From: Escherichia coli
GTDB lineage: Bacteria; Pseudomonadota; Gammaproteobacteria; Enterobacterales; Enterobacteriaceae
Strand: one strand, 5' to 3'
DNA: 377 nt
NCBI RefSeq assembly: GCF_003334355.1
Contig: NZ_QOWP01000111.1
The notes under the pieces: generated by a model
Databases searched by the model: none
What the model was told of the DNA's origin: nothing
The model's input: only the letters and a program-made list of their open reading frames with translations
Made by a program: the position numbers and the translations under genes
Shown here: positions 1-377 of the stretch, in pieces
Layout: the number at the start of each line of letters is the position of its first letter
Position numbering within the stretch: position 1 is the first letter of the stretch

Positions 1-377
1 GCATACAGCCGGGCAGTGACGTCATCGTCTGCGCGGAAATGGACGAACAGTGGGGATACGTCGGGGCTAAATCGCGCCAGCGCTGGCTGTTTTACGCGTA
101 TGACAGGCTCCGGAAGACGGTTGTTGCGCACGTATTCGGTGAACGCACTATGGCGACGCTGGGGCGTCTTATGAGCCTGCTGTCACCCTTTGACGTGGTG
201 ATATGGATGACGGATGGCTGGCCGCTGTATGAATCCCGCCTGAAGGGAAAGCTGCACGTAATCAGCAAGCGATATACGCAGCGAATTGAGCGGCATAACC
301 TGAATCTGAGGCAGCACCTGGCACGGCTGGGACGGAAGTCGCTGTCGTTCTCAAAATCGGTGGAGCTGCATGACAAA
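1..377 (+). mobile_element. IS1-family insertion sequence, internal fragment covering roughly the distal half of the element; no terminal inverted repeats inside the window
   Basis: The full window is near-identical at nucleotide level to my recollection of IS1 (insB region). The element is oriented so that the transposase reads left to right on the + strand. The right inverted repeat should lie roughly 50 bp beyond the window end, and the insA gene with the A-run frameshift site should lie upstream of position 1. Confidence 0.9.
3..377 (+). CDS. insB: IS1 transposase InsB / C-terminal part of the InsAB' fusion transposase; partial, truncated by the window at both the 5' and 3' ends
   Basis: Frame +3 is open across the entire window (125 codons, no stop). 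My own translation is [125 protein letters not shown]. From memory this matches the IS1 InsB protein almost residue for residue, and the nucleotide sequence is near-identical to the canonical 768-bp IS1. The first in-window ATG (39-41) is an internal Met, not the start. The start and the stop (expected a few codons past position 377) lie outside the window. Confidence 0.93.

Follow-up and report, generated by a model that had tools for sequence, protein, structure and literature searches.

A 377-base Escherichia coli sequence identical to the interior of the insertion sequence IS1

The stretch of Escherichia coli DNA analysed here (377 bases; hereafter the window, taken at its full length) raises the question of which element it belongs to, what it encodes, and what it can say about the locus around it. 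An earlier note, made from the letters alone, had read it as lying wholly inside an IS1 element. This reading was upheld by a 100% match over the full length of the window and by the position of the matching segment in complete copies. We are very nearly certain that the window represents an unaltered internal segment of IS1, in the form found on plasmid R100, and spans element positions 338-714. Nothing in the sequence speaks against this reading.

Identity and spread of the segment

The window matched IS1 at 377 of 377 bases (100% identity), both in the IS1 of R100 and in thousands of annotated copies. A megablast search of complete E. coli genomes returned the whole window at 100% identity, with 72,890 places in 9,407 matched records, distributed over chromosomes (58,656) and plasmids (14,234). 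A match was present in 4,967 of 5,426 genomes, with a median of 10 and a maximum of 66 places per genome. Most of the places in this collection were full-coverage matches, and the annotation beneath the matches was that of an IS1 family transposase. On plasmids, the window was found in at least 5,000 records, all with at least 99% identity among the matches listed; the hosts among those matches belonged to at least 10 genera and included Escherichia, Klebsiella, Enterobacter, Salmonella, Citrobacter, Shigella and others. The segment was also present in 18 phage records, from P1-like and other phages, including P1, RCS47 and SfIV. With this number of places in E. coli, and with the plasmids and phages in addition, the segment cannot be placed uniquely, as the earlier note had anticipated for a multicopy element.

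The copy number also bears on what the 377 bases represent. It is possible, and in our view rather doubtful, that a short-read assembler merged many IS1 copies into the consensus read here as the window, which would then mark no single locus. The source sequence is just 377 bases long, and a copy number as high as that observed for IS1 is the typical repeat-collapse situation. Such a collapse is, however, compatible with the main explanation, an internal piece of IS1, and would alter only the meaning of the "surrounding locus".

Position within the element and state of the copy

Two reference copies with flanking sequence, both identical to the window, were used to establish its position: one chromosomal (L001, from E. 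coli 203740) and one plasmid-borne (L002, from plasmid p720632_94). In the complete copies, the 768-bp element occupies locus positions 1164-1931 and the window 1501-1877, with 337 bp of the element to the left of the window and 54 bp to its right. The window is thus wholly inside the element (Table 1). An extension of about 400 bp upstream and 60 bp downstream had been proposed as a means of finding the element ends; at the true distances, it would reach both.

The terminal inverted repeats of the reference copies, GGTGATGCTGCCAACTTACTGAT and ATCAATAAGTTGGAGTCATTACC, are 23 nt long and complementary at 18 of 23 positions (78%). They were located with a 6-base seed, as the default 9-base seed missed the IS1 ends. 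In the reference copies, the A6C frameshift motif occupies element positions 305-315 (TTAAAAAAC at 305-313), preceding the window by 22-32 bases; the insA stop codon, at 330-332, comes just before window position 1. As both are upstream, the window carries the insB' frame only. Outside it are insA, the A6C site, the last 12 insB' codons, both inverted repeats and any target-site duplication.

Table 1. Features located in the window, with strand and the evidence for each
Feature	Position	Strand	Evidence
IS1 internal segment, element positions 338-714 of 768	1..377	+	100% identity and alignment to complete copies
insB' frame, no start or stop codon inside; InsAB' residues 96-220, DDE_Tnp_IS1 catalytic domain	3..377	+	Open frame, NF033558, PF03400
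Predicted first catalytic Asp, GAC, window residue 14, InsAB' D109	42..44	+	Conserved in alignment
Predicted second catalytic Asp, GAT, window residue 71, InsAB' D166	213..215	+	Invariant column
Predicted catalytic Glu, GAG, window residue 96, InsAB' E191	288..290	+	Invariant column

Both the inverted repeats (23 nt) and a target-site duplication (9 bp) were seen among reference copies, as had been predicted. A 9-bp duplication was observed at the plasmid copy L002 (TAAGTATGC) and at K-12 IS1E (GACATTAAA, in yrhA). No target duplication was found at L001, R100 or K-12 IS1A, which implies later rearrangement at these copies. The behaviours that the earlier note had listed for IS1 were likewise seen among the reference copies, namely a catA1 neighbour in R100 (as in Tn9-type structures), an inverted pair, and gene disruption (in yrhA and afuB, for example).

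Two of these settings can be described more closely. In p720632_94 (L002 1164-2390), the IS1 with its clean duplication lies approximately 240 bp upstream of sta2, a gene for a heat-stable enterotoxin, in surroundings that hold fragments of IS66 and IS3; no other place in this plasmid matches the window. In the E. coli 203740 chromosome (L001 1164-3377), two inverted IS1 copies flank a 1-kb pseudogene fragment of glycoside hydrolase family 15. The absence of a target duplication at the examined copy is consistent with either a composite structure or a rearrangement brought about by IS1.

An unlikely alternative to a complete, potentially active element, as the source of the window, is an IS1 remnant that was truncated or rearranged through a further insertion or through a deletion mediated by IS1. 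Partial copies do occur: 342 of the 9,407 matching E. coli records have no place covering at least 80% of the window, and example partial copies cover 63% or 10% of it and adjoin other transposase fragments. The later rearrangement implied at L001, R100 and K-12 IS1A points in the same direction. However, neither a stop codon nor an indel interrupts the window, every base agrees with the copies in L001, L002 and R100 that are annotated as intact, and full-coverage matches make up most of the places in the collections. We infer that the window's copy is most likely a complete element, residing in an enterobacterial chromosome, plasmid or phage; as truncated IS1 copies exist, completeness is likely and not proven.

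A surprising location for this copy, either in a host outside the Enterobacterales or as an arm of an undescribed composite transposon with new cargo, is very improbable. Were this so, the interest would lie in the flanks and not in the window, which offers no hint of such a setting.

Coding content of the window

The window was translated in all forward frames. Frame 3 was free of stops from end to end and encoded 125 residues, and the other two forward frames were full of stops. The translation scored 137 bits with the NCBIfam equivalog model NF033558 (transpos_IS1), whose curated cut-off is 100, and the alignment spanned profile positions 91-199 of 199. It also matched the Pfam model PF03400 (DDE_Tnp_IS1), with E = 5e-71 and coverage of model positions 1-119 of 131. 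The InsAB' numbering takes the stop codon of the annotated frameshifted CDS (232 codons) as its reference and runs backwards from there. On this numbering, the window holds residues 96-220 of 232, which is the InsB' catalytic part of the transposase and not the whole gene. A search for a solved structure of a relative gave no match at E values up to 1.

To place the catalytic residues, the window was aligned with diverged IS1-family sequences from phage records, with identities of 93%, 85%, 45% (IsEc30, from phage Rac-SA53) and 37% (a remnant from APSE-2). The aspartate at window residue 14 was kept in all four aligned sequences covering that column, including the 45%-identical IsEc30. Aspartate 71 and glutamate 96 were invariant throughout, including in the 45% and 37% identical relatives. 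In the translation, exactly 24 residues separate these two, and an arginine follows the glutamate at +7. A spacing of 24 residues between the second aspartate and the glutamate is unusually short and distinctive for IS1, as was reportedly described by Ohta and co-workers in 2002. The triad with this spacer, one of the marks by which membership of the IS1 family was judged, is present in the window.

Frameshift control, InsA repression and DDE catalysis in IS1 were reportedly worked out by Sekine and Ohtsubo in 1989 and by Ohta and co-workers in 2002. In this mechanism, insB' is translated only after the ribosome slips back one base (-1) at the A6C motif, and the slip joins InsA to the segment held by the window, giving the 232-residue transposase InsAB'. 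The InsA part contributes a zinc finger and a helix-turn-helix that bind the inverted repeats of the element, and the window segment, with D109, D166 and E191, forms the DDE catalytic core. To judge by analogy from other transposases of the DDE class, the triad would hold the metal ions required for cleavage of the element ends and their joining to the target. Transposition would leave a target duplication of 8-9 bp. The mechanism, comprising frameshift control, InsA repression and DDE catalysis, has been summarised previously (PMC12428005).

The earlier note had further held that the window contains only transposase coding sequence, and the searches for anything else agreed with it. A scan of both strands against Rfam, at E values up to 1, gave no match, and a scan for promoter-like and terminator-like sites found none in the window. 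The 103 nt after the A6C motif, which overlap the window start, were folded in search of a frameshift stimulator, and the fold was no better than that of shuffled sequences (z = +0.65). The RNA fold of the whole window was also not better than shuffles (z = -0.55).

The longest other open reading frame, of 94 codons on the minus strand (92-376), was open in all copies with at least 99% identity. As a gene, this candidate was rejected, with two to three in-frame stops in the compared IS1F-type copies, including those of phi458 and KFu015, in which the forward frame is intact; the antisense frame is not conserved, and is most likely a by-product of codon usage in the forward frame.

The distribution of substitutions followed the forward frame. 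Relative to the IS1F-type copies, 30 of 41 differences fell at third forward-codon positions (binomial p = 2e-7), and across four diverged copies the proportion ranged from 22/30 up to 33/42 (p from 9e-6 to 2e-9). As the differences concentrate on forward-frame third positions, selection acts on insB' only, and the pattern indicates purifying selection in this frame. An extra element overlapping the transposase frame, whether an antisense gene or a structured RNA (a frameshift stimulator, for example), is extremely unlikely and was largely refuted: the 94-codon frame is open in the window and its closest copies, but it is interrupted in IS1F-type copies, the substitutions track forward codon positions, and neither the Rfam and signal scans nor the folds gave any support.

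A short repeat was noted within the frame. Window positions 323-335 contain 1.4 copies of a 9-base unit (ACGGCTGGG ACGG), and in a chromosomal IS1 of E. coli JSMCR1 (L015 923-953) this unit is expanded by 18 bases, in frame. The expansion adds six residues (RLGRLG) just after the region of the DDE glutamate, and looks like replication slippage.

Isoform, relatives and significance

The six IS1 copies of E. coli K-12 MG1655 were taken from the annotated genome and compared with the window. IS1A to IS1E showed 99.2-99.7% identity to it. The classical 768-bp IS1 of R100, called IS1R in ISfinder, shares all 377 bases and the same 125 InsB' residues, in a comparison that covers the window only. IS1B and IS1C are identical at 376 of 377 bases, with a single difference at position 367 (Leu to Gln), and IS1D is also identical at 376 of 377, with a single difference at position 294 (His to Tyr). 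These three copies carry the window's bases at all three positions that set it apart from IS1A and IS1E. The latter two have the same frame and are identical to the window at 374 of 377 bases; the differences at positions 56 and 59 are synonymous, and that at position 107 encodes arginine in the window and serine in IS1A and IS1E (InsAB' residue 130). IS1A and IS1E are the transposition-active "consensus" copies of K-12 (PMC12428005).

K-12 IS1F had 41 differences from the window (about 89% nucleotide identity). The IS1F-type copies, which include those of K-12, phage phi458 and pTW14425, have the same 768-bp architecture and frame as the window, with about 89-90% nucleotide identity, and differ from it at 37-42 bases and 9-10 residues. 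An in-frame stop is present in K-12 IS1F and in the pTW14425 copy. The IS1-family element IsEc30 of phage Rac-SA53 carries an insAB gene with a -1 frameshift and shows a target duplication of 8 bp; it keeps the D, D, E triad and its spacing, whereas its protein identity over the window is only 45%.

The window is identical to copies labelled "IS1A family" and to copies labelled "IS1B family" by NCBI's PGAP. As all differences between these two types lie upstream of the window, the isoform is narrowed and not fixed; judged by sequence, it is narrowed to the R100 type, and K-12 IS1A/E, IS1B/C, IS1D and IS1F are excluded.

Two further observations concern other members of the family. Of the 34 differences between the IS1 of plasmid pKFu015_1 (L012 364-1131) and the common type, 30 fall within the part of the element that corresponds to the window; the left end of this copy (GGTGATG...) belongs to the common type and the right end (ATCAGTAAG...) to the IS1F type. 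This arrangement suggests a mosaic formed by recombination between IS1 isoforms. In the APSE phages of Hamiltonella (APSE-2, L013 701-901, and APSE-1, APSE-4 and APSE-5), short degraded remnants of an IS1-family transposase were identified, with 37-67% identity over 29-54% of the window protein. They lie in the toxin-cassette variable region, in APSE-2 beside cdtB.

The window is already known and ordinary: it is part of a textbook mobile element, the same as the reference sequence, and contains only the known coding frame of that element. Its value is in annotation only, which calls for masking the segment or giving it an IS1 label (part of InsB' and of the DDE domain). It is unsuitable for placing a read or contig, for inferring a host, or for calling a locus-specific feature. 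IS1 causes gene inactivation, deletions and cointegrates, and forms composite transposons with resistance or toxin genes. As the element drives changes of this kind, the flanking sequence, if obtainable, would be practically worth inspecting.
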